Virus record (IMG/VR): IMGVR_UViG_2519899780_000006
Strand: one strand, 5' to 3'
DNA: 48,195 bases
Source of the DNA: a virus
Taxonomy: Duplodnaviria; Heunggongvirae; Uroviricota; Caudoviricetes
The notes below the pieces were generated by a model. It did not search any database. It was not told where the DNA came from and saw nothing but the letters and a program-made list of their open reading frames with translations. Shown piece after piece: positions 1 to 43,872 of this stretch. The number at the start of each line of letters is the position of its first letter. Positions within the stretch are counted from its first letter, which is position 1. A program made the position numbers and the translations under genes.

Positions 1-582
1 TTACTCTGCAGGTGAAGTCGGCCACTCAATATCAGGTGCAGTTGATGTATCAACACGGTTCAGCAACACCCGATACTTTTTCCAGGCTTCCAGCAATGAG
101 GTTTCTTCCTCCGTTGCAATTTCCAGATCTGCAGCATCCTGAAGCGGCGCAATATGCTCACTGGCTACCTGCATCAGGTTGTTTTTTGTTTCTTCCGCCT
201 CCCGGATCCGGAACAGTTTTTCTGCTTCCGTATCCTTCACCCAGGCTGTGCCGTTCCACTTCTGAAACTCCCCTTCCGGCGATAACCAGGTAACATTTTC
301 CGGTAACGGACCGAGTTCAGAAATAAATAACTCGTCCCCTGACGCTACGTCATAAACCGTTTTACCCCGATGGTCTTCAACGAGATGCCACGATGCCTCA
401 TCACTGTTGAAAACAGCCACAAAGCCAGCAGGAATATCTGGTGGTGCAATATCGGTACTGTTTGCTGGCAGACCTGTATGAGGCGGAATATATGCGTCAC
501 CTTCACCAATAAATTCATTAGTTCCGGCCAGCAGATTATAAATTTTTATGGTCCGTGGTTGTTCACTCATTCTGAATGCCAT
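1..582 (-). CDS. tfa: Tail fiber assembly protein Tfa
   Basis: 193-aa ORF beginning [24 protein letters not shown], near-identical in my recollection to lambda Tfa; stop codon at window positions 1-3; follows stf as in lambda. Confidence 0.9.
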
Positions 583-4105: not shown

Positions 4106-7100
4106 TCAGCTGATACTGATGCCTGCGGTGGCTTTCTTCATCACCACAACCAGCAAATCGCTGATACTTGCTGTGGGATACCAGTTATTCATCAGCCATG
4201 CTGATACCGAAAACTCCAGCGTCATGTGACCGTGACCGGCAGGCATATCAATAACGCCACTGTAAATCAGCGTATTATCCAGCGCGGTACGGTTATAAAT
4301 TTCAGCACCGTTTTTCCGCACTATCAGACGGCATGAGGAGTAAATATCAGTATGCTCTCTCTTATGCTTAGCGCCACTGAATGCCACTGCCGGAATAACA
4401 ATCTGCCGGTCAAACGGCTGATCGTCATAAACCCTGACGGTAATGGTCCCTGATGGCCACCGCTCCGGTGCACGGGAATCCCGGGGGAAAGCTTTGCCCA
4501 CTGTTTTAACGAGATCGCCTTCAATCTGGTTCGCGGACAGTTTTCCCAGAACCCGACAGTTCTCGTTAATCGTGACGTTGTTGAGCGTCCCGGAATTCGC
4601 ATTCACGTTACCGCTGATATCAGCATTTCTTGCGGTCAGCCTGCCCTCCGGCGTCAGGGAAAACGTCGGGGGATTGCCGGACGAGGTGATACTCACCGCA
4701 AACAGCCGCTTCAGGAACACATCGTTCATGAACAACTGATTCCCCTGCGCCACAAATAACGGCGTGGTGTTGCCGTCCTCCGGGTTAATCATCGCAATAC
4801 GGTCAGCCAGCAGCAGTATGTTGCTCAGGGGCTGGCCATCAGTATCCTCAATCCCCGCTCCAATACCGGCAACATAGGGTATGCCATTTTTTGTTTTCTG
4901 TACCTTCAGCATGTAAAGTGCAGCAAGGTCATCATTTGTGTCCTTCTGCACGCGCTGTATCTGCTGTATGGTGGCGCTCTGGTCCTCCAGCGTTTTACTG
5001 ACCGTCTGTGTGATTTCATTGCGGGTTTCGGTGATGGTGGTCTTCATCTCCGCCATCTCATCCGCAAGCTGGCTGTTGTCTATCAGCTCCCACAGCCCCT
5101 GAGCCAGATGCAGTTTTCCTATTTTTTCCCGAAACAGCCCCAGATACCCTTCTGCATCATTGCTGGCCCGTCCACTGGCTTCAACAAAAGCAGATTTCCC
5201 CACCAGGTTAACGCTGCGTACATAAAACCAGAAATCCTTCCCGGGCTTAATGTGCGGGCCGGAGACAGTCCACTGACTGCCAGTCCCCAGATAACGGGCA
5301 GATTTTTCCACCTGTGCCGTGTTCGTGATGCGTTTTTCTGAGAACCAGAATTCAAACTGTACCGTCGGGTCATACACCGCCAGCACCGGTACCGCTGTTA
5401 TCTGAAAATACCCCGGCGTCAGTTCAATGGTGGCGGGTTTTGCTGGCGCGTTAATCCGGAAGGTGGTGGTGGCCGGTTCGCCCTGCTGGCCATAACTGTT
5501 AATTGCCCTGACTGTCAGGGTGTATTCCCCGAGCGGCAGACCACTGAAACGATGCTCTGTATCCGCAGTGATAGCGGTGGTCACCAGACGGCTGTCTTCT
5601 CCGCTTCCGCTGGTCAGTCGCAGACTGAAGCGCACCCCCTTCACCACCCGCGGCGTGTCCCATTTCGCCTGTGCCAGATACTGGCCGTCAGCTGCGCTCA
5701 CCTCCACCGTCAGGTGCTGCACTGCCGGTGGGATGACGCTGTTCAGGGAGCCTGACTGCGGCTCAAAGCGGGCACCGTTATCCACGATGGCTTCTTTTTC
5801 CGGTACGTGCTGCACCGCCGTGATGGCAAAGGTGCCGTCCGTGTTTTCCCGGACGGAGACACAGCGGAACAGGCGACGGCGCAGTGACGGCAGGGAGAGT
5901 CCCCACACCCCGTATGTCTCCACACCATCAGGCAGGGTACTGACCTGTATCCGGTCCGGCGCGGGGTGTGCGGTGATGTCCACACTCACCGGCTTACCGC
6001 TGCCGTTAATCAGGTTCACCGCCGATGTACCTGTCTCCGGCAGGGTAACCTCACGGTCCAGCGTCAGGGTGCGGGTGGCAGCATCAATGGACAGGATACG
6101 TCCGCCGGTCATGGTCCCGGCATAGTCGTTATCACAGATTTCAATAATGTCACCGGGTGTGTGACGCAGCCCCTGTGACCCGAGCGTGAAGTCCACCGTC
6201 TGCGTTTCCAGCAGTTCGGTCTTTATCACCCACAGCCCGGCACGGTGGGCCTGACCGCGGCTGGTACAGCCGAACGCGTCCATCTTCAGCAGGTTGCGTC
6301 CGTAGCGCAGTATGGCTTCCGGGTCTTCCACCAGTTCCGTGGAGGTCTGCCAGCCGTTCTGCGGGTCGGTGTAATTCACCTCCACCGCCGTGTGCCGGTC
6401 CTTCAGGGCACTGAAGCTGTAGCGGAACCCCACGCCGTTATCATCCACCACCACATCGCTGTTGGTGTACGGCCACACCACATCCGACTGGCGGTCCTGA
6501 ACGAACGTCAGCGTCTGGCCGTTCCATACCGGCATACAGCGCATCGCCGAGCAGAAATCACTGAGAACGTCCCACGCCTTACGCTGTTGTGCCAGGTACG
6601 CATTAAAGGTCATCCGCGGCTCTGTGCCCCCGAAACCATCCGGGACCGTCTGGTCGCAGTACTGCCCGATGGCATACAGCGCCCACTTGTCCACATCCGC
6701 CGCCCCCAGACGTTTTCCCATGCCGTAGCGCGGGTGAGTCAGCATGTCCCACAGACACCAGGCCGGGTTGTTGCTGTATGCCGGTTTCAGACTGCCGTCC
6801 CAGATACCACTGTACGTGCGTTTTTCCGGGTCATAGTTTGACGGCACCTGGATGATGCGACCGCGGATATGGTAGTTCACCGTCATCTGCTGGCCGCCGA
6901 ACTGCTCCGCATCCACCTGCAGCCCCACAATGGCCGTGTTCGGGTAGCACTGTTTCACATCGATAATTTCAGTGTACGATGACCAGAGCGTTCTGTTCTG
7001 CAACTGGTCCGTGGTGCTGTCCGCCGTCTCCCTGACCATCCGGATGTTAAAGGGCCGGGGCGGCAGATTATCCAGAATCACCGAGGCCAGGAACTGTGAG

Positions 7101-7579
7101 GTGGTCTTGCCGTTAATGGTGACGTCCTTTTCCGTCACCCAGCGGCCATTACGCTGTAACTGAATCAGAATCCGGACAGAGGAAGGATTACGGTCGCCCT
7201 TTGACGTGGTCTGCACCAGTGACTGCACCCCGAAGGTAACCCGCAGGCGGTCAATGTTCGCGGACGTAATGGTGCGCGTCACCGGTTTTGCCTTCGTCAC
7301 TTCCACGCCCAGTCCGGTTTCAGCTCCGGAGGACTCAAAGCCTTCCGGTGGTGTCTGCTCCTGCTCCCCGGCGCGCCAGACCGCCGTCACACCGTGTATC
7401 ACGGGATTACCGTCCGTGTCCGTCAGCGGGGTTTTGTTCACCAGAATACTCTGCAGGCCTTTCACCGGGCCTTCTATCGGTCCCTCACCAATCGCATCAA
7501 TCACGCTCATCATCTGCGTGGATTTGAGATTGTCTTTCGCCTCACGCGGTGTGTGCGCCCTGCCGCCGCCTTTGCCCAT
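4106..7579 (-). CDS. J: Tail tip host-specificity protein J
   Basis: 1157 aa, N-terminus [22 protein letters not shown] matches lambda J as I recall it; position after I. Confidence 0.9.
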
Positions 7580-7682
7580 TACATCACCTCTTACCGTGAT
7601 AATTGTTCACTCACAAAAACAACAGGCACCTCACCGGGTGCCTGCGTCATGACGGAATAAAATTTCTGAATATCTTCACATT

Positions 7683-7710
7683 TTCACACACTGACTGTGG
7701 CGCTTATAAT
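7683..7710 (+). promoter_or_regulatory. Candidate sigma70 promoter for an I-J intergenic small RNA
   Basis: TTCACA (7683-7688), 16-nt spacer, consensus TATAAT (7705-7710), on the strand opposite the tail genes. Confidence 0.35.
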
Positions 7711-7716
7711 TTCGCT

Positions 7717-7815
7717 GCGTTAGTGTTTTTTTGCCCGGGTAACCAAAACAACTCCTTAACATTAATCTTCATTTGTCTGTCCCCGCAGCTCCGCGATCAC
7801 TGCGGGATTTTTTTA
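7717..7815 (+). ncRNA. Candidate small RNA in the I-J gap (possibly AgvB-like anti-sRNA)
   Basis: About 100 nt between the promoter above and a hairpin cccgcag...ctgcggg (7782-7806) plus U-run (7808-7814). No ATG or RBS. Body is C/A-rich (AACCAAAACAACUCCUUAACAUUAAUC). Confidence 0.3.
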
Positions 7816-7819
7816 TGTT

Positions 7820-8500
7820 TTATCCCTGTCGACCAATAACCACCACCTTTCCGCCCCCGCCTTCATCACGGGTGCTGATGTCCTGAGAGATACGTCGTGA
7901 ACCAACCAGCATTTCACCGTAGGGCACCGGCATCGGGTTGCCCTGGGCAATCATGTTGTCCAGTGAGGAAAAGTACGTGTTCTGTTTACCGTTATCCGTT
8001 GCGCGGTAATCCGGTGTTTTTGCCTTCGGGGCCAGCATCTGGGCCACACCGCCCAGAATCATACTGGCACCCAGTGAAAACAGCATCGTGGTGGCAGAAA
8101 AACCACCGGCACTCAGGGCTGTACCCCATAACGCCATCGAGCCTCCGGCCGTGAAGAAAGAGCCCACGATGGCTGCCGCCCCCAGCACAATCTGCAGTCC
8201 GCCCTTTCCGGCACCGGCCAGTCGCGGCACAATGTGGATGACCGTTCCCTCACCCAGCTGTTCGTGAAGGCGGGCATACACCGCCTCCGGTGCCGTGTCC
8301 TCACCGGCAATACGTATCTGGTACCAGCCTTCGTTCATCTGACGGCGGAATCCGGGCACCTGTAACGACAGCGCCCGGATGGCTTCCGCTGCCGTGTTCA
8401 CATACAGGCTGAGGCGGCGGCCAAATCGTTGTAAATCCCCGTGAAGGCAGATGCGTGCCAGTGGCGGTGACGCCAGACAGAATGCGTTCGTCGTTGCCAT
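7820..8500 (-). CDS. I: Tail assembly protein I
   Basis: 226 aa, lambda gpI-like with Gly/Ala-rich hydrophobic core; overlaps K 3' end as in lambda. Confidence 0.85.
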   Translation of the reverse strand: MATTNAFCLASPPLARICLHGDLQRFGRRLSLYVNTAAEAIRALSLQVPGFRRQMNEGWYQIRIAGEDTAPEAVYARLHEQLGEGTVIHIVPRLAGAGKGGLQIVLGAAAIVGSFFTAGGSMALWGTALSAGGFSATTMLFSLGASMILGGVAQMLAPKAKTPDYRATDNGKQNTYFSSLDNMIAQGNPMPVPYGEMLVGSRRISQDISTRDEGGGGKVVVIGRQG

Positions 8501-15387: not shown

Positions 15388-15741
15388 TTATCGTCGCCGG
15401 TTAACAGCGGGTGGTTGCCCACGGTTGAGCCAGAGATAACAGCTTCCCCCGTCATCCGGAGAAACACGATCCACCCAGAACATCTCGCCGTTAATGGTCA
15501 GCGTGTCACCACGCCGCACAGCCCGAACCGTATCCGTCCGCACAAATAATGACGGGCTGCTTCCTTCAATACGGACCCCGCCACCGGCAAAACCCAGCGA
15601 CTCCGGATCGTCAAAAACCCCCTGAACTTCGCCACCACGCTGTGCCCCCGAGGTGAACTGCGCACAGAGTCCCATCACTTCAACAATCGTGCTGTCCACC
15701 CCGGCGAGGGCAGCATCGAAGGCATTCTGAAAATCACGCAT
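15388..15741 (-). CDS. FII: Head-tail joining protein FII
   Basis: Start taken at MRDFQNAFD (ATG 15739-15741), giving 117 aa; C-terminus WVDRVSPDDGGSCYLWL matches lambda FII as recalled. Confidence 0.85.
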   Translation of the reverse strand: MRDFQNAFDAALAGVDSTIVEVMGLCAQFTSGAQRGGEVQGVFDDPESLGFAGGGVRIEGSSPSLFVRTDTVRAVRRGDTLTINGEMFWVDRVSPDDGGSCYLWLNRGQPPAVNRRR

Positions 15742-24518: not shown

Positions 24519-24986
24519 TTATTTCAGGCACTGAGTGCGGATATAGTCCTGTGCCCCTTCCAGTTGCTTCTGCATCGTCATCAGCCGCTCTCTGAGGGTG
24601 AAATAATCCCGTGTAACGGTGTCTGCCAGTTGGGGGCCGGTTGCATTATCCACGCGGGCGGTGCCGGTGGCTTCACGCACGGGACCTGGACAGGTGGCGT
24701 TGATCCGCAGGCTGCGGTGACCAGCGGCAACGTCAGCGCGAAGAGTTTCATTTTCAGCTCTCGCATCGGCTAATTCCCTCGAGTATCTGGCATCAAGTGC
24801 AGCAACATCACGCTGGCGCTGCTGCATATCAGTAATGGTTGCATTTGCCAGCTCCAGCTCACTGACTTTTTTATCGCGCTGCTCTTTGTAGGTTATGGCG
24901 TTATCACGGTAATGATTCAGCCCCAGACTAAGCGCACCACAGGCCACCAGCAGGGCAATGATGACCACGCACAGTACGCGGTTCAT
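24519..24986 (-). CDS. Rz: Spanin inner-membrane subunit Rz
   Basis: 155 aa; N-terminal TM helix then NHYRDNAITYKEQRDKK and C-terminal FTLRERLMTMQKQLEGAQDYI, matching lambda Rz as recalled. Confidence 0.9.
   Translation of the reverse strand: MNRVLCVVIIALLVACGALSLGLNHYRDNAITYKEQRDKKVSELELANATITDMQQRQRDVAALDARYSRELADARAENETLRADVAAGHRSLRINATCPGPVREATGTARVDNATGPQLADTVTRDYFTLRERLMTMQKQLEGAQDYIRTQCLK
24581..24751 (-). CDS. Rz1: Spanin outer-membrane lipoprotein Rz1 (embedded in Rz)
   Basis: Embedded +1-frame ORF; start taken at MKLFALTLPLVTAAC (lipobox), followed by Pro-rich CVKPPAPPAWIMQP. Confidence 0.8.
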   Translation of the reverse strand: MKLFALTLPLVTAACGSTPPVQVPCVKPPAPPAWIMQPAPNWQTPLHGIISPSESG

Positions 24987-24987
24987 T

Positions 24988-25086
24988 TCACCACCAGCGT
25001 ATCTGACCGATGAAATAACCGGAGGCCATAATCACAAACACCAGCCAGATAAGAATGAACTTCCAGGTGGATAATTTTTCAGCCAT
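24988..25086 (-). CDS. Candidate 32-aa single-TM micro-protein translationally coupled to Rz
   Basis: MAEKLSTWKFILIWLVFVIMASGYFIGQIRWW; its TGA stop overlaps the Rz start (TGAAATG). Not in the ORF track because it is under 60 aa. Confidence 0.25.
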   Translation of the reverse strand: MAEKLSTWKFILIWLVFVIMASGYFIGQIRWW

Positions 25087-25156
25087 CACTCGAATCTCCC
25101 GAATCAGTTTGCTAAAATCAAACACACTTTCTCCTTTGACTTTTCCAGAGTCAGGA

Positions 25157-25196
25157 AACACAAAACCCCGCTTGCAGCCAACAAACGGGGTTTTTA
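25157..25196. terminator. Bidirectional terminator-like hairpin between R and Rz
   Basis: ccccg...cgggg stem (25166-25190) with a T-run after it on the plus strand and a U-rich tract after it on the minus strand. Confidence 0.4.
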
Positions 25197-25284
25197 CTTT
25201 TATTCACTTAGTTTTTGTCAGTTCGCAGGATTTCGTGTTATCCGTCCGTGTGAGCAAACCGCATTTTTCAGCAAAATATTCTGC

Positions 25285-25818
25285 TTATCTGTCAATTCCC
25301 CAGCACGCCAGCGCACTCTCCTGGTCGCGACGGGATACCTGACCGTAACAGTTGTTTGAGCGAATACGGCAGTCTCTGCCACCGTCCTTAATCCACCAGC
25401 GAATCGCCTCACACGCCCCCCTGCGATCGCCTGCATTAATTCGTTTATAAAACGTCGACGGGAAACACTTACCGGGACCAATGTTGTACGGACAGAATGA
25501 CGCGATCCCCGCTTTCTGGGGTTCGGTCAGTGGCACTCTGATGTTTTTCTCCACCCACGCCAGCGCTTTATCACGCTCAATGGCGTTAACCTGGTCGCAT
25601 TTTTCCTTCGACAACTTCATGCCCGGAACGACAGGTTTGCCATCCACCATGATGGCACCACGGCAGATGGTCCAGATACCTGCACCATCACGGTATGCCG
25701 TGGTGTGATTGCCTTCCTTTTCATCCAGAAACTGGTCGAGAATGTCAGGCGCAGGCGCACCAGCGGCAATCAGCGCCAGAACGGCAGCCGACAGGCCGTA
25801 TTTGATTTTGGTGTTCAT
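25285..25818 (-). CDS. R: SAR endolysin (T4-lysozyme-like muramidase, GH24)
   Basis: 177 aa; weakly hydrophobic Gly/Ala-rich N-terminus (YGLSAAVLALIAAGAPAP); catalytic E-x8-D-x5-T spacing (EGNHTTAYRDGAGIWT). Confidence 0.85.
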   Translation of the reverse strand: MNTKIKYGLSAAVLALIAAGAPAPDILDQFLDEKEGNHTTAYRDGAGIWTICRGAIMVDGKPVVPGMKLSKEKCDQVNAIERDKALAWVEKNIRVPLTEPQKAGIASFCPYNIGPGKCFPSTFYKRINAGDRRGACEAIRWWIKDGGRDCRIRSNNCYGQVSRRDQESALACWGIDR

Positions 25819-25860
25819 GGATATTTATCAGGATTTATCGGCAACAGATAACGAGCCAGC

Positions 25861-26667
25861 TTATATACGTCCTTTAAGATAAGTCAGTCCTGGATGAAAC
25901 CAGTAAGCCGGCACTTTTTTAAAGGGCGGATTATCAAAATCACGAAGAAGAGCCTCCCGCACAACTGCATCCTTGTCCGCACCACTGGCCAGCGCTTCAA
26001 TCTCAGCAGCTATCTGCAGATATCCCATGCAACGGCCAATGCGCTTCATCAGCCCCTGCTTTTTATTGTTCTTCAGGTAATCAATGGCAAATTCAATGAG
26101 CGCCTCACTATGCTGGTGCGATGGCGGTGTTAATTTCCCATTTTCTGAGATGGTTATTTTCCCGCCATCTCCGTATACAACAAAGGATGGCCGGTTACAC
26201 TCCCATTCCTGATCTTTATCAGGTGCAGACGCAATAAAATAACGTTTATTTCCTTCCTCTCCGGCACTTTTAACCGTAATGGAGTACTCAGACTGCAGAC
26301 AAGACGCCTCTTTTTCTGACCGCAGTGTTGACGGCGGCATCTTCAGAGAACCAGTAATTCTTCCCGGTAGCTTTCCTTTGTAGGTTATCAACACATCCTG
26401 CGCCTCTAAAATTATGGGGCGCTTTTCCGGCAACGGTTCGTTCCCTTCACATAACCCGGCAGCAACATCCATGAAAAACTGCTTCGCCTGCTTTTTCGCC
26501 TCAGCTTCGTAAAACTCCAGCGTGGCACCTTCAGTACGGTCAAGACTAATCGCCACATCTGGCAACAACAGTGACGGATACCCACCAATTTCCAGTGCCA
26601 CAGTAACAGTAATCTTATCCGGATAATTATTTATCCCTTTAACACCCAGTTCGTATTTTTTCTTCAT
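25861..26667 (-). CDS. Hypothetical 268-aa protein inserted between holin and endolysin
   Basis: Intact ORF with GGGGGAG RBS directly after the S stop; lower GC than flanks; no TM segment or signal peptide; no motif I recognise. Confidence 0.6.
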   Translation of the reverse strand: MKKKYELGVKGINNYPDKITVTVALEIGGYPSLLLPDVAISLDRTEGATLEFYEAEAKKQAKQFFMDVAAGLCEGNEPLPEKRPIILEAQDVLITYKGKLPGRITGSLKMPPSTLRSEKEASCLQSEYSITVKSAGEEGNKRYFIASAPDKDQEWECNRPSFVVYGDGGKITISENGKLTPPSHQHSEALIEFAIDYLKNNKKQGLMKRIGRCMGYLQIAAEIEALASGADKDAVVREALLRDFDNPPFKKVPAYWFHPGLTYLKGRI

Positions 26668-26671
26668 CGCT

Positions 26672-26887
26672 TTACTCCCCCCGCGCCGCCTTACGACGGT
26701 CCTCTCTGATTTTGAAATACAGGTTAGTCAGATATGTCAGCAGCCCAAACAGCAGACTCCCCAGCACGCCTATTGCCGCCCACTGAGACGGGGAAACCCT
26801 GTCCAGCAACTGCAGGAACCAGTAGCCCGTTCCCACCGCTGACGTGGTGTATGACACACCTGTTGTGATTTTTTCCATCTGGTACAT
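26672..26887 (-). CDS. S: Class II holin, phage 21 S21-type pinholin
   Basis: 71 aa from dual-start motif MYQM (ATG 26885-26887); [50 protein letters not shown] matches S21 as recalled. The ORF track extends it upstream to 26965. Confidence 0.85.
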
Positions 26888-26919
26888 ACCCCGTCTCCCG
26901 TTATCCGGAAGCTGACAAC

Positions 26920-26952
26920 AATAAAAAAAGCCACCAGTTAAGTACTGATGGC
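26920..26952 (-). terminator. Terminator-like hairpin upstream of S
   Basis: Imperfect 9-bp stem (26930-26952) followed on the minus strand by UUUUUUUAUUG. Confidence 0.35.
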
Positions 26953-27037
26953 TCTGATAACTCATGCAGGCATCTCAGACGACCCACTGACACTACCGGT
27001 GAGTTTAACGATACCTTCCATTTGACTGGCTCACTTT

Positions 27038-28891
27038 TTATGATGATGCCGGTGCATTTATCTCCAGCACCAGACTTTCTATCTCAACGCCATACGCTGC
27101 ATTTTTGGTAATATCCGTCAGCGTCAGCGCATTCAGCCCCAGTGTCAGACTGTCTTTTATGACCTGGAATGCCGGGCCAGCCACTCCATTCAGTTTCGGA
27201 GTAACCGTGGCACTGCCGGCGGTGAACACCAGCTCCAGCGTCTGCCAGTCGTTACTGTAATTCCCGAACTCGCCCAACTTTGTGTTTCCGGCTTTCTTGT
27301 GATGCATCAGATTCAGTTTGCCGTCTGTGGTCTGGGTGAAGAACGACATCAGGAACGGGTTACCAGTCCCGGTCATCGCCACGACGTCAGGTAACGCTAC
27401 ATCGGTATACAGATAAATTCCCAGACCGAACTGGTTGTTGGTCAGTGCGCCTGACAGTCGAAACTTACAGCTCAGTCTGCCACCCCGTGTCAGCAGGGAG
27501 ACTGCGTCATCCACCGGGCGCGTCAGGGACCAGGCTTTATTGCTCTGCTTGGTGATCTTAAATACACCATCTGACAACTGAATTCCGCCATTCTTAATGC
27601 TCCAGCCCTGCGCAGCAGCATCTCCGGCTGTCGGCAACAGGGAGATTGTGCGTACGGATGCATCTTCAGACGGCCCCGATGGCGTGTCGACGCCGGGCGA
27701 GGGTTTGATTTCCGGTGCCTTACCACTGATGAAGGCTGAGGTGCGCCCGGCTGCGTTCAGAATAGCGGTTGCCATACGATCCGGAATAATGCTCCTGCGC
27801 GCCCATGAACTGAAATGTGTCGGGCGGTTTGATGATACCTGGTTTCCATTCGTTCTCGATGCCGCACCGTAATATCCTGATGCCGGAATATCCGGATCTT
27901 CTGCCGGTGCGTTAGTGGCGGTATTGACGCCGTTACCGTCTGTCATGAAGGGCACAAAATAAACGCCCTCACTCTCCCTGTTTTTATACCCTCCGTACAC
28001 GGTGTCGTACTGGGTAGCGTATGTATTTTTCCAGTAATACGTCGTGTCACCACAAATCCACGGTACAACTGCAGCACTGCCGCCATGGCACTGCGCGTTA
28101 AATCCGGAAAGGTCAGTACGGAACTGCTTCAGCATGGCCGTGAACAGGTCCGGTTGCTGTGCGTAGGTGGCAGCGCTCATGTCAAATTCGCCCTGCATCC
28201 AGCACACCGCCAGCAACACATTTTTCGGGTTCTTCTGTAATGCAGCTTTAGTGCGCGCAATCAGGTCCTGATATAGCGGTTTACCCACACCCCAGCGTGC
28301 CGAATCCTGGCTGGCCCCCGCGTCCGCACTGAATGTCCCCTCCGCGCCCTGGGTGAATGCCGAACCACCACGACAGCATGGTACCAGCAGGATCCCAGCG
28401 TTATTCGGGATATACGGGAGCAGTTTTTTGGCAATATGTAAGCCCTGGCCGACACAGCCGTACTGCCCTTTGCTCAGGTCTGCCTTCGGATGATTCAGCG
28501 TACTCATATCCTGCACATCATGCAGACAGTGGTCAGCCGGGATGATGTCGTTATACGTACAACTCTCTCCCCCCGGAGTTACCGTGCTGCGGCGCGCCAG
28601 CTGTTTAATGCGCGGATCCGGAGCATCGTAAGAATCCGGTAACGGAAGCCCTTCACCGTAGGCCATGCCGTTGGACTGTCCGGCAAGCACAACCACGTAG
28701 AACCAGTCCGGCTCAGATGAAGGGCCGACCTGTGGATCTCCTTCAATAGCCACCGCCTGCATCAGTGTGTACGGCGTAATGGCAACCGGTCCGCCATATG
28801 GCTGCCAGCCCTCTTTCAGTTTGTGTGTCAGCTTTTCCGCAAGGTCTGACGGCGACGCCGCCCTGACAACATCATAGTGTTTAAATGCCAT
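27038..28891 (-). CDS. NanS-like sialate O-acetylesterase (SGNH hydrolase)
   Basis: 617 aa; GQSN motif (VLAGQSNGMAYG); occupies the slot between the tRNA cluster and S where Stx phages carry this esterase. Confidence 0.75.
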   Translation of the reverse strand: MAFKHYDVVRAASPSDLAEKLTHKLKEGWQPYGGPVAITPYTLMQAVAIEGDPQVGPSSEPDWFYVVVLAGQSNGMAYGEGLPLPDSYDAPDPRIKQLARRSTVTPGGESCTYNDIIPADHCLHDVQDMSTLNHPKADLSKGQYGCVGQGLHIAKKLLPYIPNNAGILLVPCCRGGSAFTQGAEGTFSADAGASQDSARWGVGKPLYQDLIARTKAALQKNPKNVLLAVCWMQGEFDMSAATYAQQPDLFTAMLKQFRTDLSGFNAQCHGGSAAVVPWICGDTTYYWKNTYATQYDTVYGGYKNRESEGVYFVPFMTDGNGVNTATNAPAEDPDIPASGYYGAASRTNGNQVSSNRPTHFSSWARRSIIPDRMATAILNAAGRTSAFISGKAPEIKPSPGVDTPSGPSEDASVRTISLLPTAGDAAAQGWSIKNGGIQLSDGVFKITKQSNKAWSLTRPVDDAVSLLTRGGRLSCKFRLSGALTNNQFGLGIYLYTDVALPDVVAMTGTGNPFLMSFFTQTTDGKLNLMHHKKAGNTKLGEFGNYSNDWQTLELVFTAGSATVTPKLNGVAGPAFQVIKDSLTLGLNALTLTDITKNAAYGVEIESLVLEINAPASS

Positions 28892-29044
28892 GAATCCTCC
28901 CGGCCGGGATAATATTGTGAGTAAAATGAGGAGCGGGCTGAAGTCCGGAAGTTACAGGACAATGGCAGAAGAGAGACAACAGCCCGCAATACGAAAAAGG
29001 CCGCGCTATTGCGCAGAGTGATTACTGTCGGATATTATTCGCCA

Positions 29045-29114
29045 GCTGAAATATTACTTCACGTTTTGTTGTTTATTCCTTGCCGCCCGCGTCTCCCAGC
29101 GCGGGCTTTTTTTT
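29045..29114 (+). ncRNA. Speculative small RNA of about 70 nt
   Basis: Possible promoter TTGCGC (29009-29014), 18-nt spacer, TATTAT (29033-29038), then the terminator above; G/U-rich body. Confidence 0.2.
29085..29114 (+). terminator. Plus-strand intrinsic terminator with no upstream plus-strand gene
   Basis: 7-bp GC stem gcccgcg / cgcgggc followed by TTTTTTTT (29107-29114). Confidence 0.45.
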
Positions 29115-29341
29115 GTCCATAAGAAAGCCCCTCCGGAGAGGGGCTGGAGAGTGGCGCTATGTGCCATTGCATGGTGCCGGGTGCCTCCCGGTGAATTCAG
29201 TACCAGCACCTGAATCCGCGATTATCCCATATACCTACTCGCTGATTGCCCCTCCGCACAGGGGGATTCACCATGCCAGTTTCTTTTAACAAACTCCCCG
29301 CAAAACAGACAACTGTCAACCGTCTGAATTGTGAGACATTT

Positions 29342-29367
29342 AAAAAAAAGGCCCGCAAAAGCGAGCC
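29342..29367 (-). terminator. Intrinsic terminator after the tRNA cluster
   Basis: Hairpin GGCUCGC UUUU GCGGGCC followed by an 8-U run on the minus strand. Confidence 0.45.
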
Positions 29368-29381
29368 AGGGAAAATAAGTG

Positions 29382-29458
29382 TGGCGCGTTGTACTGGATT
29401 CGAACCAGTGACCGATTGCTTAGAAGGCAATTGCTCTGTCCGGCTGAGCTAACAACGC
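29382..29458 (-). tRNA. argO: tRNA-Arg (anticodon UCU)
   Basis: 77-nt cloverleaf folded by hand: acceptor GCGTTGT/ACAACGC, D stem GCTC/GAGC, anticodon loop CUUCUAA, T loop TTCGAAT, 3' CCA encoded. Confidence 0.85.
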
Positions 29459-29474
29459 AGGATACAGATAATGA

Positions 29475-29548
29475 ACCGCCTTCGGGGACCCGAACTCCGC
29501 GCAACCAGCTTCGAAGGCTGGCGCTCTATCCTGATGAGCTAATGGCGG
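29475..29548 (-). tRNA. argN: tRNA-Arg (anticodon UCG), slightly imperfect
   Basis: About 74 nt; anticodon loop CUUCGAA; T loop TTCGGGT; one mismatch each in acceptor and T stems; no encoded CCA. Ends approximate. Confidence 0.6.
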
Positions 29549-29555
29549 TATGTGA

Positions 29556-29631
29556 TGGTGGCCCTTGCTGGATTTGAACCAGCGACCTGGCGATTATGAG
29601 TCGCTCGCTCTCACCACTGAGCTAAAGGGCC
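29556..29631 (-). tRNA. ileZ: tRNA-Ile2 (anticodon CAU), ileX/ileZ-like
   Basis: 76 nt reading GGCCCTTTAGCTCAGTGGTGAGAGCGAGCGACTCATAATCGC...CCACCA, close to E. coli ileX as recalled. Confidence 0.85.
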
Positions 29632-29680
29632 GGGAGCAGAATAATAATGGTGCGTAATTAATTCTGCAATCTCATCCGTT

Positions 29681-30730
29681 TCAAACGATTAAATCCTGAA
29701 CTTCCCTGACTGTCTGCTCAAAACGTCCTGTCTCCAGTTCAACGCCAATCGCACGACGCCCGAGCGCCAGTGCCGCTTTTACCGTTGAACCCGACCCCAT
29801 GAAAAAATCCGCAACCAGATCACCAGGACGACTACTTGCGCTGATTATCTGCTGCAGCATTTCTGCCGGTTTTTCGCACGGATGTTTCCCGGGATAGAAC
29901 TGCACCGGTTTATGTGTCCACACATCCGTGTACGGCACCTGCGCCGTCACACCAAAATACCGCCGCAGATGTTTATATTCACTCTGCAGCTCCGCATACT
30001 GTCGGTTCAGTGAAGTATACGTATCCACCAGCTGGTGGTGGGGCTTTTCCAGTTCCCCCCGCTGATGCTTCTCTTCTGCCACCCTGGCAAACAGTGCCTG
30101 TAATTTCAGATAATCGCTTTCGTTCGGCAACTGCCACTGACTGGCACTGAACCAGTGCGACACCATGTTTTTCTTTCCTGTGGCATCTGCAATCTGTTTT
30201 GCCGTTATCCCAAGAGCAGCACGCGCATCACGAAAGTAAGAAATCAGCGGGGCCATCACATGCTGTTTCAGTGCCCTGCCCTTCGCCTCATCGCCATCAT
30301 CTTTCGGACGATACGGCCCCTGATAATGTTCCGCGAACAGAATGCGTTCTGTGGCCGGAAAATACGCCCGCAGGCTTTCCTTGTTGCACCCGTTCCAGCG
30401 TCCGGACGGCTTCGCCCAGATAATATGGTTCAGCACACTGAAGCGTTCACGCATCATGATTTCGATATCAGATGCCAGGCGATGACCACAGAACAGGTAA
30501 AGACTTCCGGCAGGTTTCAGCACCCGCCAGAACTGCGCCAGACACTGGTCCAGCCACTTCAGGTAATCATCGTCGCCCTTCCACTGGTTATCCCAGCCCT
30601 CAGGCTTCACTTTAAAGTACGGCGGGTCCGTAACTATCAGGTCAACAGAATTTTCGGGTAACGACCGGATAAATTCCAGGCAGTCGGCGTTGATTAACTC
30701 ACAACTGGATATTTTTACAGTATTAAGCAT
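29681..30730 (-). CDS. DNA methyltransferase, beta-class N6A/N4C (DPPY family)
   Basis: 349 aa; motif IV LIVTDPPYF near the N-terminus and motif I DFFMGSGSTV near the C-terminus. Confidence 0.8.
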   Translation of the reverse strand: MLNTVKISSCELINADCLEFIRSLPENSVDLIVTDPPYFKVKPEGWDNQWKGDDDYLKWLDQCLAQFWRVLKPAGSLYLFCGHRLASDIEIMMRERFSVLNHIIWAKPSGRWNGCNKESLRAYFPATERILFAEHYQGPYRPKDDGDEAKGRALKQHVMAPLISYFRDARAALGITAKQIADATGKKNMVSHWFSASQWQLPNESDYLKLQALFARVAEEKHQRGELEKPHHQLVDTYTSLNRQYAELQSEYKHLRRYFGVTAQVPYTDVWTHKPVQFYPGKHPCEKPAEMLQQIISASSRPGDLVADFFMGSGSTVKAALALGRRAIGVELETGRFEQTVREVQDLIV

Positions 30731-34006: not shown

Positions 34007-34162
34007 TTACTCCTCAGGTTCGTAAGCTGTGAAGACAGCGACCTCCGTCTGGCCGGTTCGGATTCGTACCTCGCAGAGGTCTTTCCTCGTTACCAGTGCC
34101 GTCACTATGACGGTTAAACAGATGACGATCAGGGCGATTAACATCGCCTTTTGCTGCTTCAT
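34007..34162 (-). CDS. hokD: Hok/Gef-family type I toxin
   Basis: 51-aa ORF MKQQKAMLIALIVICLTVIVTALVTRKDLCEVRIRTGQTEVAVFTAYEPEE, hand-translated; absent from the ORF track (under 60 aa); matches HokD/RelF as recalled. Confidence 0.85.
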   Translation of the reverse strand: MKQQKAMLIALIVICLTVIVTALVTRKDLCEVRIRTGQTEVAVFTAYEPEE

Positions 34163-34420
34163 AGCCTGCTTCTCCTTGACCTTTCGGTCCGTAAGAGGCT
34201 AATCTCTATGTGTCGCATAGATATGGCCTCAGATTAATGTTAAGCGTCTTGCAGGACGCGTAATGTTAACTGGGGCTTTTCTCTATCTGCCTTTTGGTGT
34301 TCATGCCTGAGACAGATAGCCTCAAGCACCCGCAGTCATTCTACTTAACTAAGATTTCCCCGCAAACCGTTTTTGTCCGGCACAGTAAATATCCAACTAA
34401 ACCAATGGCGTTCGCTGTAT

Positions 34421-43306: not shown

Positions 43307-43872
43307 TTTATCCTCCATTGAGGTTACTGGTTGAGAATGGAGACCTCTCGTGACAGCGTGTGGTCGTGCGCCGGACACGGATAAGAATCCGGCACTGACA
43401 GTTTACTGAAAGGATATTTCCCTGAAAAGTCAGACCATAACGCGAAAGCGCACGGCGAGGTAGCTGGTTCATAGATAGCCTGTCGTTAAATTTTCGTCGA
43501 CCGTGCGCTTCCGGTTGTGGCAATCCGCGAAATGGCGCGGCGGTAAGTATGGCGGGGTTATTCCTTCCCCCGTTGAGGACACCGGGTTGTCAGGTTGGCC
43601 ATACGCTTAAGTGACAACCCCGCTGCAACGCCCTCTGTTATCAATTTTCTGGTGACGTTTGGCGGTATCAGTTTTACTCCGTGACTGCTCTGCCGCCCTT
43701 TTTAAAGTGAATTTTGTGATGTGGTGAATGCGGCTGAGCGCACGCGGAACAGTTAAAACCAAAAACAGTGTTATGGGTGGATTCTCTGTATCCGGCGTTA
43801 ATTGTTAACTGGTTAACGTCACCTGGAGGCACCAGGCACCGCATCACAAAATTCATTGTTGAGGACGCGATA

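Follow-up and report, generated by a model that had tools for sequence, protein, structure and literature searches.

PasB (pathogenicity-associated sRNA B) is a small RNA (sRNA) that was found by RIL-seq (ligation and sequencing of interacting RNAs) in enteropathogenic Escherichia coli (EPEC) E2348/69 and confirmed by Northern blotting as an RNA of approximately 83 nt whose stability depends on Hfq (Pearl Mizrahi et al. 2021, PMC8550237). Its log2 fold change in an hfq deletion was −6.8 under activating conditions (DMEM, Dulbecco's modified Eagle medium) and −2.4 under non-activating conditions (lysogeny broth, LB). It was the second RNA in 0.99–1.0 of its chimeras, had 37 partners (interactions) and was more abundant in the non-activating condition (overnight static LB) than in DMEM (PMC8550237). 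PasB has been described as restricted to Escherichia and Shigella, as lying inside a phage structural-gene operon and as often having IS009 for a neighbour (Zhu, Shabalina and Storz 2026; bioRxiv 10.64898/2026.05.13.724894). Here, we analysed a promoter–terminator unit in IMG/VR virus record IMGVR_UViG_2519899780_000006 (Caudoviricetes), the whole 48,195-nt stretch of which is referred to as the window. The window is a lambdoid prophage with its late operon on the minus strand, and the unit is very probably the gene of PasB, that is, of a prophage-encoded, Hfq-dependent, trans-acting base-pairing sRNA carried as a moron-like promoter–terminator insert, antisense, in the I–J gap of lambdoid tail operons.

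Three further groups of elements are relevant for comparison. EcOnc22, EcOnc23 and EcOnc24 of enterohaemorrhagic E. coli (EHEC) O157:H7 Sakai were detected on the plus strand as peaks of Hfq CRAC (cDNA analysis after cross-linking), migrated at approximately 85 nt on Northern blots and were destabilised without hfq (Tree et al. 2014, PMC4104026, Table S2); a 2021 review still listed them as of unknown function. AgvB and AsxR (RF02702, RF02703) are, like PasB, encoded by prophages and bound by Hfq; each has a terminator, and the short 5′ part is likewise unstructured. They differ from it in where they lie (downstream of Q at the PR′ moron site, converging on the moron gene), in their length of 51–60 nt, in a shared 42-nt 3′ domain and in the motif CACAACA, which pairs with region R1 of the sRNA GcvB. 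The unit in the window, unlike AgvB and AsxR, is located among the genes of the tail operon, some 21 kb away from the STnc100/tRNA/PR′ region, and its RNA is 83–98 nt long. Phage morons such as bor and lom of lambda are likewise additional segments placed between two conserved phage genes; they have a promoter and a terminator of their own and are expressed from the prophage (Juhala et al. 2000, cited in PMC4104026). The PasB insert is absent from lambda and, unlike bor and lom, it has a non-coding RNA as its product and lies inside the tail operon in antisense orientation.

Identity of the unit in the I–J gap

The unit is flanked by the tail tip/host specificity gene J (4106..7579, minus strand; full GpJ domain set in Pfam, E-values down to 3e-41) and the tail assembly gene I (7820..8500, minus strand; Pfam Lambda_tail_I, E = 4.7e-16). 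Open reading frames (ORFs) and Pfam domains bounded the gap at 7580–7819 (240 bp), compared with 60 nt in lambda, between the end of I at 15444 and the start of J at 15505. Both lengths agreed with those given in an earlier description of this locus made from the sequence (hereafter the original prediction), which had proposed a small RNA at this position.

In E2348/69 (EPEC O127:H6), PasB is encoded by prophage PP6 on the minus strand of NC_011601 (1466343..1466261, 83 nt), and the probe AATCCCGCAGTGATCGCGGAGCT was published for it (table S6, PMC8550237). The reverse complement of this probe had a single match in the window, at 7787–7809 on the plus strand, with 0 mismatches against a chance expectation of 0.00. 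The PasB RNA of the window, whose position (7732..7814, plus strand) and length (83 nt) were taken over by homology from the transcript mapped in EPEC, was identical to E2348/69 PasB at 79/83 positions in a colinear, gapless alignment (A1), and the promoter region and the terminator were identical throughout. The four substitutions, at 7738, 7744, 7758 and 7764, correspond to nt 7 and 13 at the 5′ end and to nt 27 and 33 in the pairing region. The genomic context was also the same. E2348/69 PasB lies antisense between a tail assembly protein gene (ending at 1466255) and gpJ (starting at 1466496), as in the window. Gene, gap, orientation, promoter region, terminator and probe site all correspond. 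The longest U-tract of pasB is 7 according to table S5 of PMC8550237, matching the U7 of the window, and an IS009 copy (41–239, minus strand, Rfam gathering score) lies within 10 kb of the window PasB, in agreement with the reported flanks.

The EHEC RNAs were placed by their coordinates. In the current Sakai record, EcOnc22, EcOnc23 and EcOnc24 mapped to the 240-bp I–J gaps of Sp15 (Stx1), Sp14 and Sp11, antisense to the tail genes, and each of these gaps held a PasB-like unit of the CP-1639 type. The older coordinates of Tree et al. were calibrated with AgvB1 and STnc100; AgvB1 (Rfam 1941920–1941981, published peak 1941783–1941835) gave a shift of +137 to +146, and after this shift all three CRAC peaks fell inside the PasB-like RNA. 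The EcOnc RNAs share with the window PasB the I–J gap, the strand, an upstream box, the −10 element, the motifs AACUCC and AAUCUUCAU and the terminator, but are only about 76% identical to it (CP-1639 type) and lack UGUCUGUC. We infer from the coordinates that EcOnc22–24 and EPEC PasB are one family residing in the I–J gap of lambdoid tails. This link was not found stated in the PasB papers, and table S6 of PMC8550237 gives no EHEC homologue for PasB.

The gene is therefore already known, as PasB and, in EHEC, as EcOnc22–24, and the promoter–terminator unit is correctly described as a documented prophage sRNA rediscovered from sequence alone. An independent, antisense, non-coding unit was what the original prediction had proposed, and this part held, with Hfq binding established experimentally for EPEC PasB and EcOnc22–24; the anti-GcvB function proposed with it did not. 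The unit is more than a chance arrangement, because it matches the published Northern probe exactly and because related sequence recurs in 1107/5426 complete E. coli genomes. PasB has no entry in Rfam 15 and RefSeq leaves the gap unannotated despite these matches, so the identification is of value for annotation. Rfam detected nothing real in the gap, either in the whole window at gathering score or in 7500–7900 at E ≤ 10, where the matches to Ref84, Hrs1, the STnc100 terminator and the Trp leader were at chance level and were rejected. What we add to the published work is modest: the family link, a seed at nt 20–40 with sites in napF and yijD, a conserved upstream box and an identity to the R3 seed of GcvB. 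The PasB papers of Zhu et al. and Pearl Mizrahi et al. contain no discussion of the promoter, CRP, napF or GcvB.

Transcription unit and pairing region

A consensus scan of 1.5 kb (7000–8500, covering the gap and gene I) returned two promoter-like sites, compared with 0.6 expected, and none on the minus strand. The sigma-70 promoter-like site P1 (7683..7710, plus strand) consists of TTCACA (7683–7688), a 16-nt spacer and TATAAT (7705–7710), with 11/12 consensus matches. P1 predicts a transcription start near 7717 and an RNA of 98 nt. The same near-consensus promoter, antisense to the tail operon, had been named in the original prediction, although the start given there (7675) is that of a second TTCACA copy (7675–7680), which lies 24 nt from the −10 element and is not the −35. 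Conservation was assessed in two alignments, one of eight diverged gaps derived by BLAST (A2) and one of 62 unique IMG/VR variants (A3). The −10 element of P1 was kept as nATnAT in most family variants, and the −35 element was not conserved in the YYZ-2008 and CP-1639 types.

The published 5′ end of EPEC PasB and the 5′-most start of its RIL-seq reads (1466344) correspond to 7731/7732 in the window, 15 nt downstream of the start predicted from P1. The RNA is thus approximately 83 nt long by homology with the EPEC mapping rather than the roughly 100 nt first proposed, a correction that leaves the independent unit in place. An alternative −10 element, TAGTGT (7721..7726, plus strand), would put the start at about 7732–7733, fitting the mapped end. 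T1, A2 and T6 of this box were conserved across the family in A2 and A3. In a divergent paralogue (L012:9982-10207, L027), the first −10 was destroyed and the second box alone remained, as TAGATT. The 5′ end at 7731/7732 may therefore represent either a primary transcript trimmed in the U-rich stretch or a start from the second TAnnnT box.

Upstream of the promoter, preceded by ATAAAA, the box TTCTGAAnnTCTTCACATTT (7664..7683, plus strand) was invariant in A2, whereas the adjacent promoter bases and the −35 element varied. The box holds a CRP-like sequence, TCTGA-N6-TCACA (7665–7680, centre 7672.5), in which 9/10 half-site bases match. Because about 1.8 half-site matches of such quality are expected per window by chance, only the conservation of this sequence carries weight. 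Its centre would be at −60.5 to −61.5 if transcription starts at 7733/7734, the classical class I position, and at −44.5 for the TATAAT promoter. The higher level of PasB in LB than in glucose-containing DMEM fits catabolite control but is not specific to it. The box is possibly an activator site.

The Rho-independent terminator of PasB (7782..7814, plus strand) was detected by scanning and folding, as the original prediction had claimed. It is formed by a G+C-rich stem of 7 bp (7782–7788/7800–7806) with an 11-nt loop, followed by an A and U7 at 7808–7814 (z = −1.91 for the 39-mer). The stem was almost invariant in the 62 variants, with one compensatory change from G:C to A:U (L017). Folding indicated that the RNA upstream of the stem is essentially unstructured, and the plus-strand RNA body contained no ATG and no Shine-Dalgarno sequence, in agreement with the earlier claim that the unit has no start codon or ribosome-binding site.

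The predicted pairing region (nt 20–51; 7751..7782, plus strand) folded as single-stranded. It comprises nt 20–40, with CUCCUU, CACAUU and AUCUUCA, and nt 43–51, UGUCUGUCC. Three parts of PasB were examined for complementarity to the regions of the nine best-supported RIL-seq partners, with shuffled versions of every target as the control. The segment nt 20–40 (ACUCCUUCACAUUGAUCUUCA) was significantly complementary to 4/9 partners, namely napF (z = −5.5), the LEE gene map (−3.6), yhhX (−3.4) and fabR/yijD (−3.2). The segment nt 40–52, adjoining the terminator, was rejected as the main seed, being significant for yidF alone (z = −3.05). For the C/A-rich part, nt 1–19, none of the nine partners showed complementarity in excess of the shuffled control. 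At napF, the site GAAGGUCAAUGUGAAG offers 16 contiguous pairs with PasB nt 24–39, extending over the Shine-Dalgarno sequence and the GUG start codon. The Shine-Dalgarno region of yijD coincides with the end of fabR, and its sequence there, AAUGUGAAGGA, can form a perfect 11-bp duplex with PasB nt 22–32. A scan of the whole window with PasB nt 1–52 (RNAduplex) was uninformative for trans targets, since long, loop-rich duplexes averaging −12 to −14 kcal/mol were predicted throughout and many of them reached −26 to −33 kcal/mol.

An unstructured seed, a terminator with a U-tail, many partners and complementarity to ribosome-binding sites are the features of the class of Hfq-dependent trans-acting sRNAs, and all were found for PasB. 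In the proposed mechanism, the 5′ body of PasB would be an unstructured stretch of 50 nt, with the 7-bp hairpin of the terminator and the U7 tail after it as a typical 3′ end for Hfq binding, and PasB would most likely pair in trans through nt 20–51. The napF and yijD duplexes would occlude the ribosome-binding sites and so presumably repress translation.

Two of the four differences between the window copy and EPEC PasB fall in nt 20–40. The substitutions at nt 7 and nt 13 were confined to O104:H4-type copies, whereas C>A at nt 27 and G>A at nt 33 are common variants. In the window variant, the predicted yijD duplex weakened from −18.5 to −12.2 kcal/mol with loss of the 11-bp duplex, and napF pairing was predicted in another register, with 13 pairs over GUGAAGAUUGAUG (−22.9 kcal/mol). 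Since nt 27 and nt 33 lie in the seed, the target set of the window copy probably differs from that of the EPEC copy, and variant-specific target sets are plausible. The O104:H4-type copy may regulate other genes than the EPEC copy, nt 20–40 being where the common variants differ. If PasB variants do rewire core metabolism, such as nitrate respiration through napF, according to the prophage carried, this would bear on niche adaptation.

Several observations weigh against the identification of the unit as a trans-acting PasB gene or against details of the mechanism. The mapped 5′ end does not match the best promoter, so that it may be a processing site or the product of a weaker second promoter. 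The experimental evidence comes entirely from orthologues. Zhu et al. placed the seed just upstream of the terminator, whereas our comparison favours nt 20–40. Finally, the repression of napF and yijD is a prediction from chimeras and complementarity.

Alternative roles of the unit

The top partner of PasB in EPEC was a phage RNA from between the nanS-p esterase gene and the class II holin (pinholin) gene of prophage PP2. A possible, although rather doubtful, reading is that the main role of PasB is to pair with this intergenic RNA of co-resident lambdoid prophages, either controlling leaky expression of lysis genes or being titrated by the RNA. The PP2-leader RNA dominated the chimeras, with 774 of approximately 1820 PasB chimeric fragments across three libraries (odds ratio 24.7; 54 fragments for the paralogous PP5 site), and PasB was its only significant partner (table S5, PMC8550237). 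The PasB-binding site in the leader (L008:3010-3033; NC_011601 743509–743532, plus strand) adjoins pasA and lies upstream of an annotated terminator, approximately 180 nt upstream of the class II holin gene. It was 99–100% conserved in phage 434 (OL657226, at about 45550) and in Stx1a phages, ahead of the annotated terminator and the pinholin gene. Between this site, GACAGACAGUGACGGAUGUUGU (stretch GACAGACAG), and PasB nt 17–50, about 20 bp can be drawn, as UGUCUGUC:GACAGACA, UCAC:GUGA and ACAACUCC:GGAUGUUGU. However, the duplex was only marginally better than those of shuffles, with p = 0.06 when the whole body was used and z = −1.2 with nt 40–52, which also counts against PasB as a trans-acting RNA. 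The window prophage itself lacks the site, with no match at ≤3 mismatches and no BLAST homology, and has a P21-type holin with a different leader. In phage YYZ-2008, the target was 99% conserved although the co-resident PasB homologue lacks UGUCUGUC, so that the two did not co-vary.

It is unlikely that PasB acts in cis, as an antisense regulator of the tail operon. In that case, PasB, being perfectly complementary to the late mRNA between I and J, would in lytic growth form an 83-bp duplex that is cut by RNase III or alters read-through, tuning J, lom and the tail-fibre genes relative to the upstream tail genes; such a role could also add to one in trans. The antisense site gave the sole outstanding duplex in the whole-window scan (−71.5 kcal/mol), and the I–J position and the antisense orientation were kept in every family member, including the diverged ones. 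A tail-sense terminator-like hairpin was also kept on the mRNA, just downstream of the PasB complement. Against this role, PasB overlaps neither the stop codon of I (7820–7822) nor the ribosome-binding site of J (about 7585–7595), it has many trans partners and it is kept in degraded prophages. No I–J-region chimera occurred among the PasB rows of the EPEC RIL-seq table, from cultures in which the late operon is silent.

The tail-sense hairpin, with its U-rich tract, occupies 7612..7645 on the minus strand, where the original prediction had noted a hairpin and U-tract near the J ribosome-binding site. Nine pairs at 7645..7622 are followed by UUGUUUUUG (z = −2.86). The structure lies upstream of the J ribosome-binding site, with the J start codon 33 nt from the end of the tract and 43 nt from the end of the stem. 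Among approximately 45 unique variants with this flank, the pair 7629:7638 was C:G in 26 and T:A in 14, a compensatory change. In 16 variants the outermost pair forms on the minus strand only, and the U-rich tract is likewise present on the minus strand only. The hairpin is part of the J-proximal mosaic module rather than of the PasB module, and in the other common flank type its place is taken by a different one. The hairpin of the window would most likely act on the late mRNA, either by stabilising a 3′ end or as a terminator that Q antitermination allows to be passed.

A third proposal, to which we give little credence, starts from PasB nt 43–51 (UGUCUGUCC, window 7774–7782), which are identical to GcvB nt 155–163, the core of the R3 seed. 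This seed spans nt 154–171 of GcvB, and its G156, G160 and C162 have been tested functionally (Miyakoshi et al. 2021, PMC9299463). PasB would be a partial mimic of the R3 seed, entering part of the R3 regulon (yidF, perhaps others) or competing for SroC, the sponge directed at R3, and the CRP-like box would place it under catabolite control. An identity to GcvB of at least 9 nt arose in 2.6% of shuffles. The gene yidF, an R1-independent partner of GcvB, is a RIL-seq partner of both sRNAs, and for both of them pairing is predicted at one and the same site in yidF. However, the 9-mer is confined to the PasB-proper clade, most of the strong PasB partners use nt 20–40 instead, and GcvB and PasB are unrelated beyond the 9 shared nt. 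We regard this identity as a lead and not as a finding. If the proposal were true, the link to GcvB would be the reverse of the one first predicted, with mimicry of R3 in place of an R1 decoy.

That first proposal, of an AgvB-like anti-sRNA whose C/A-rich body would act as a decoy by binding GcvB at its G/U-rich R1 seed, so that dppA and oppA are derepressed, is now very improbable. Prophage anti-sRNAs exist, the 5′ body of PasB is C/A-rich (CCAAAACAAC, including the stretch CAAAACAAC) and a discontinuous duplex with R1 of −14.4 kcal/mol can be drawn. Yet this function is contradicted by every available test. There was no match to the AgvB or AsxR models of Rfam in 7500–7900 at E ≤ 10, whereas the AgvB model scored 96.5 bits on Sakai AgvB, and with the different phage site and size an AgvB-like identity does not hold. 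The R1 target consensus CACAACA is absent from the unit. Using GcvB of E2348/69, located by Rfam, the R1 duplex of the window variant (−14.4 kcal/mol) was equalled by 9–14% of dinucleotide shuffles of PasB, and an idealised CA-rich target reached −26.2 kcal/mol. PasB nt 1–19 lacked excess complementarity to the partners compared, and the RIL-seq data of the EPEC orthologue, which are not from the window strain, contained no gcvB, dppA or oppA in any PasB row. In the sRNA–sRNA blocks of these orthologue data, GcvB was found with SroC only under both conditions (945 to 1222 chimeras), and no GcvB–PasB chimeras were present in the parts of the EPEC table examined.

Equally hard to credit is that the conserved sequence serves a small tail-sense protein (MKINVKELFWLPGQKNTNAAKL, encoded at 7772..7704) and not an RNA: the 22-codon ORF does have an ATG behind a Shine-Dalgarno-like GGGGA, starts opposite AAUCUUCAU and keeps its first 10 or so codons alike in several variants with some third-position changes, but the ATG is changed to ACG or deleted in the commonest family variants, the length varies from 16 to 39 amino acids with a freely variable C-terminus, nearly every variant retains the plus-strand terminator and U-tract, and the plus-strand RNA has been seen experimentally in homologues. 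A type I toxin–antitoxin system (hok/sok-like) was also rejected, the opposite-strand ORF being hydrophilic and variable in length, with its start codon lost in the commonest variants.

Family distribution and genomic setting

Searching phage records with BLAST retrieved the unit from 147 of them, mostly Stx1a, Stx2a and Stx2c phages, at 75–78% identity, and IMG/VR contained 58 unique PasB cores. Across A2 and A3, the family kept the box TTCTGAAnnTCTTCACATTT, the nATnAT −10 element, the second TAnnnT box 10 nt downstream of the first, and the T-run. Within the RNA, the body retained AAYUCC and AAUCUUC(A/G)U, and the terminator its right arm and U-tract. Chromosomes of O104:H4-type E. coli strains, among them FDAARGOS_401 and RM8376, matched the gap region of the window at 100% identity. 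Most of the genome matches covered the gap only from about 7654 onwards, and therefore the PasB module appears to travel together with the 3′ end of I, the J-proximal flank being a separate mosaic piece.

Among species-representative genomes, E. albertii was the one species with real copies, apart from short contigs resembling E. coli inside unrelated assemblies, in agreement with the restriction to Escherichia and Shigella given by Zhu et al. A scan of these genomes with an 18-base box gave mostly random matches in unrelated phyla and was discarded. The E. coli-like prophage fragments L141, L149 and L156, in assemblies labelled Asaia, Parendozoicomonas and Streptomyces, are probably contamination. 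In some phages the I–J gap holds a tandem pair of PasB-family genes (IMG/VR contigs L012:9803-10207, L067:4005-4409 and L087). In these pairs, the upstream copy was strongly diverged in its −10, body and terminator, and the invariant box and AACUCCUUA were kept. In L058:501-726 and in L141 (a 546-bp contig), an insertion sequence directly follows the invariant box, so that the PasB promoter is cut off.

Elsewhere in the window, Rfam detected further RNA genes at gathering score. Together with IS009, these were STnc100, three tRNAs, sok (a hok/sok-type antitoxin RNA) and DicF; the spans outside IS009 are 29115–29305, 29385–29631 and 34160–34331 on the minus strand and 43647–43698 on the plus strand. 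The late region 24519–30730 (minus strand) contains a DNA methylase gene (29681–30730), followed by the tRNAs and STnc100. On the same strand, it also encodes an esterase of the SASA/nanS-p type (27038–28891), the P21-type holin (26672–26965, with a probable internal start), a DUF1327 protein (25861–26667) and a lysozyme (25285–25818). A terminator-like hairpin, CCATCAGTACTTAACTGGTGGCTTTTTTT, lies ahead of the P21-type holin gene.

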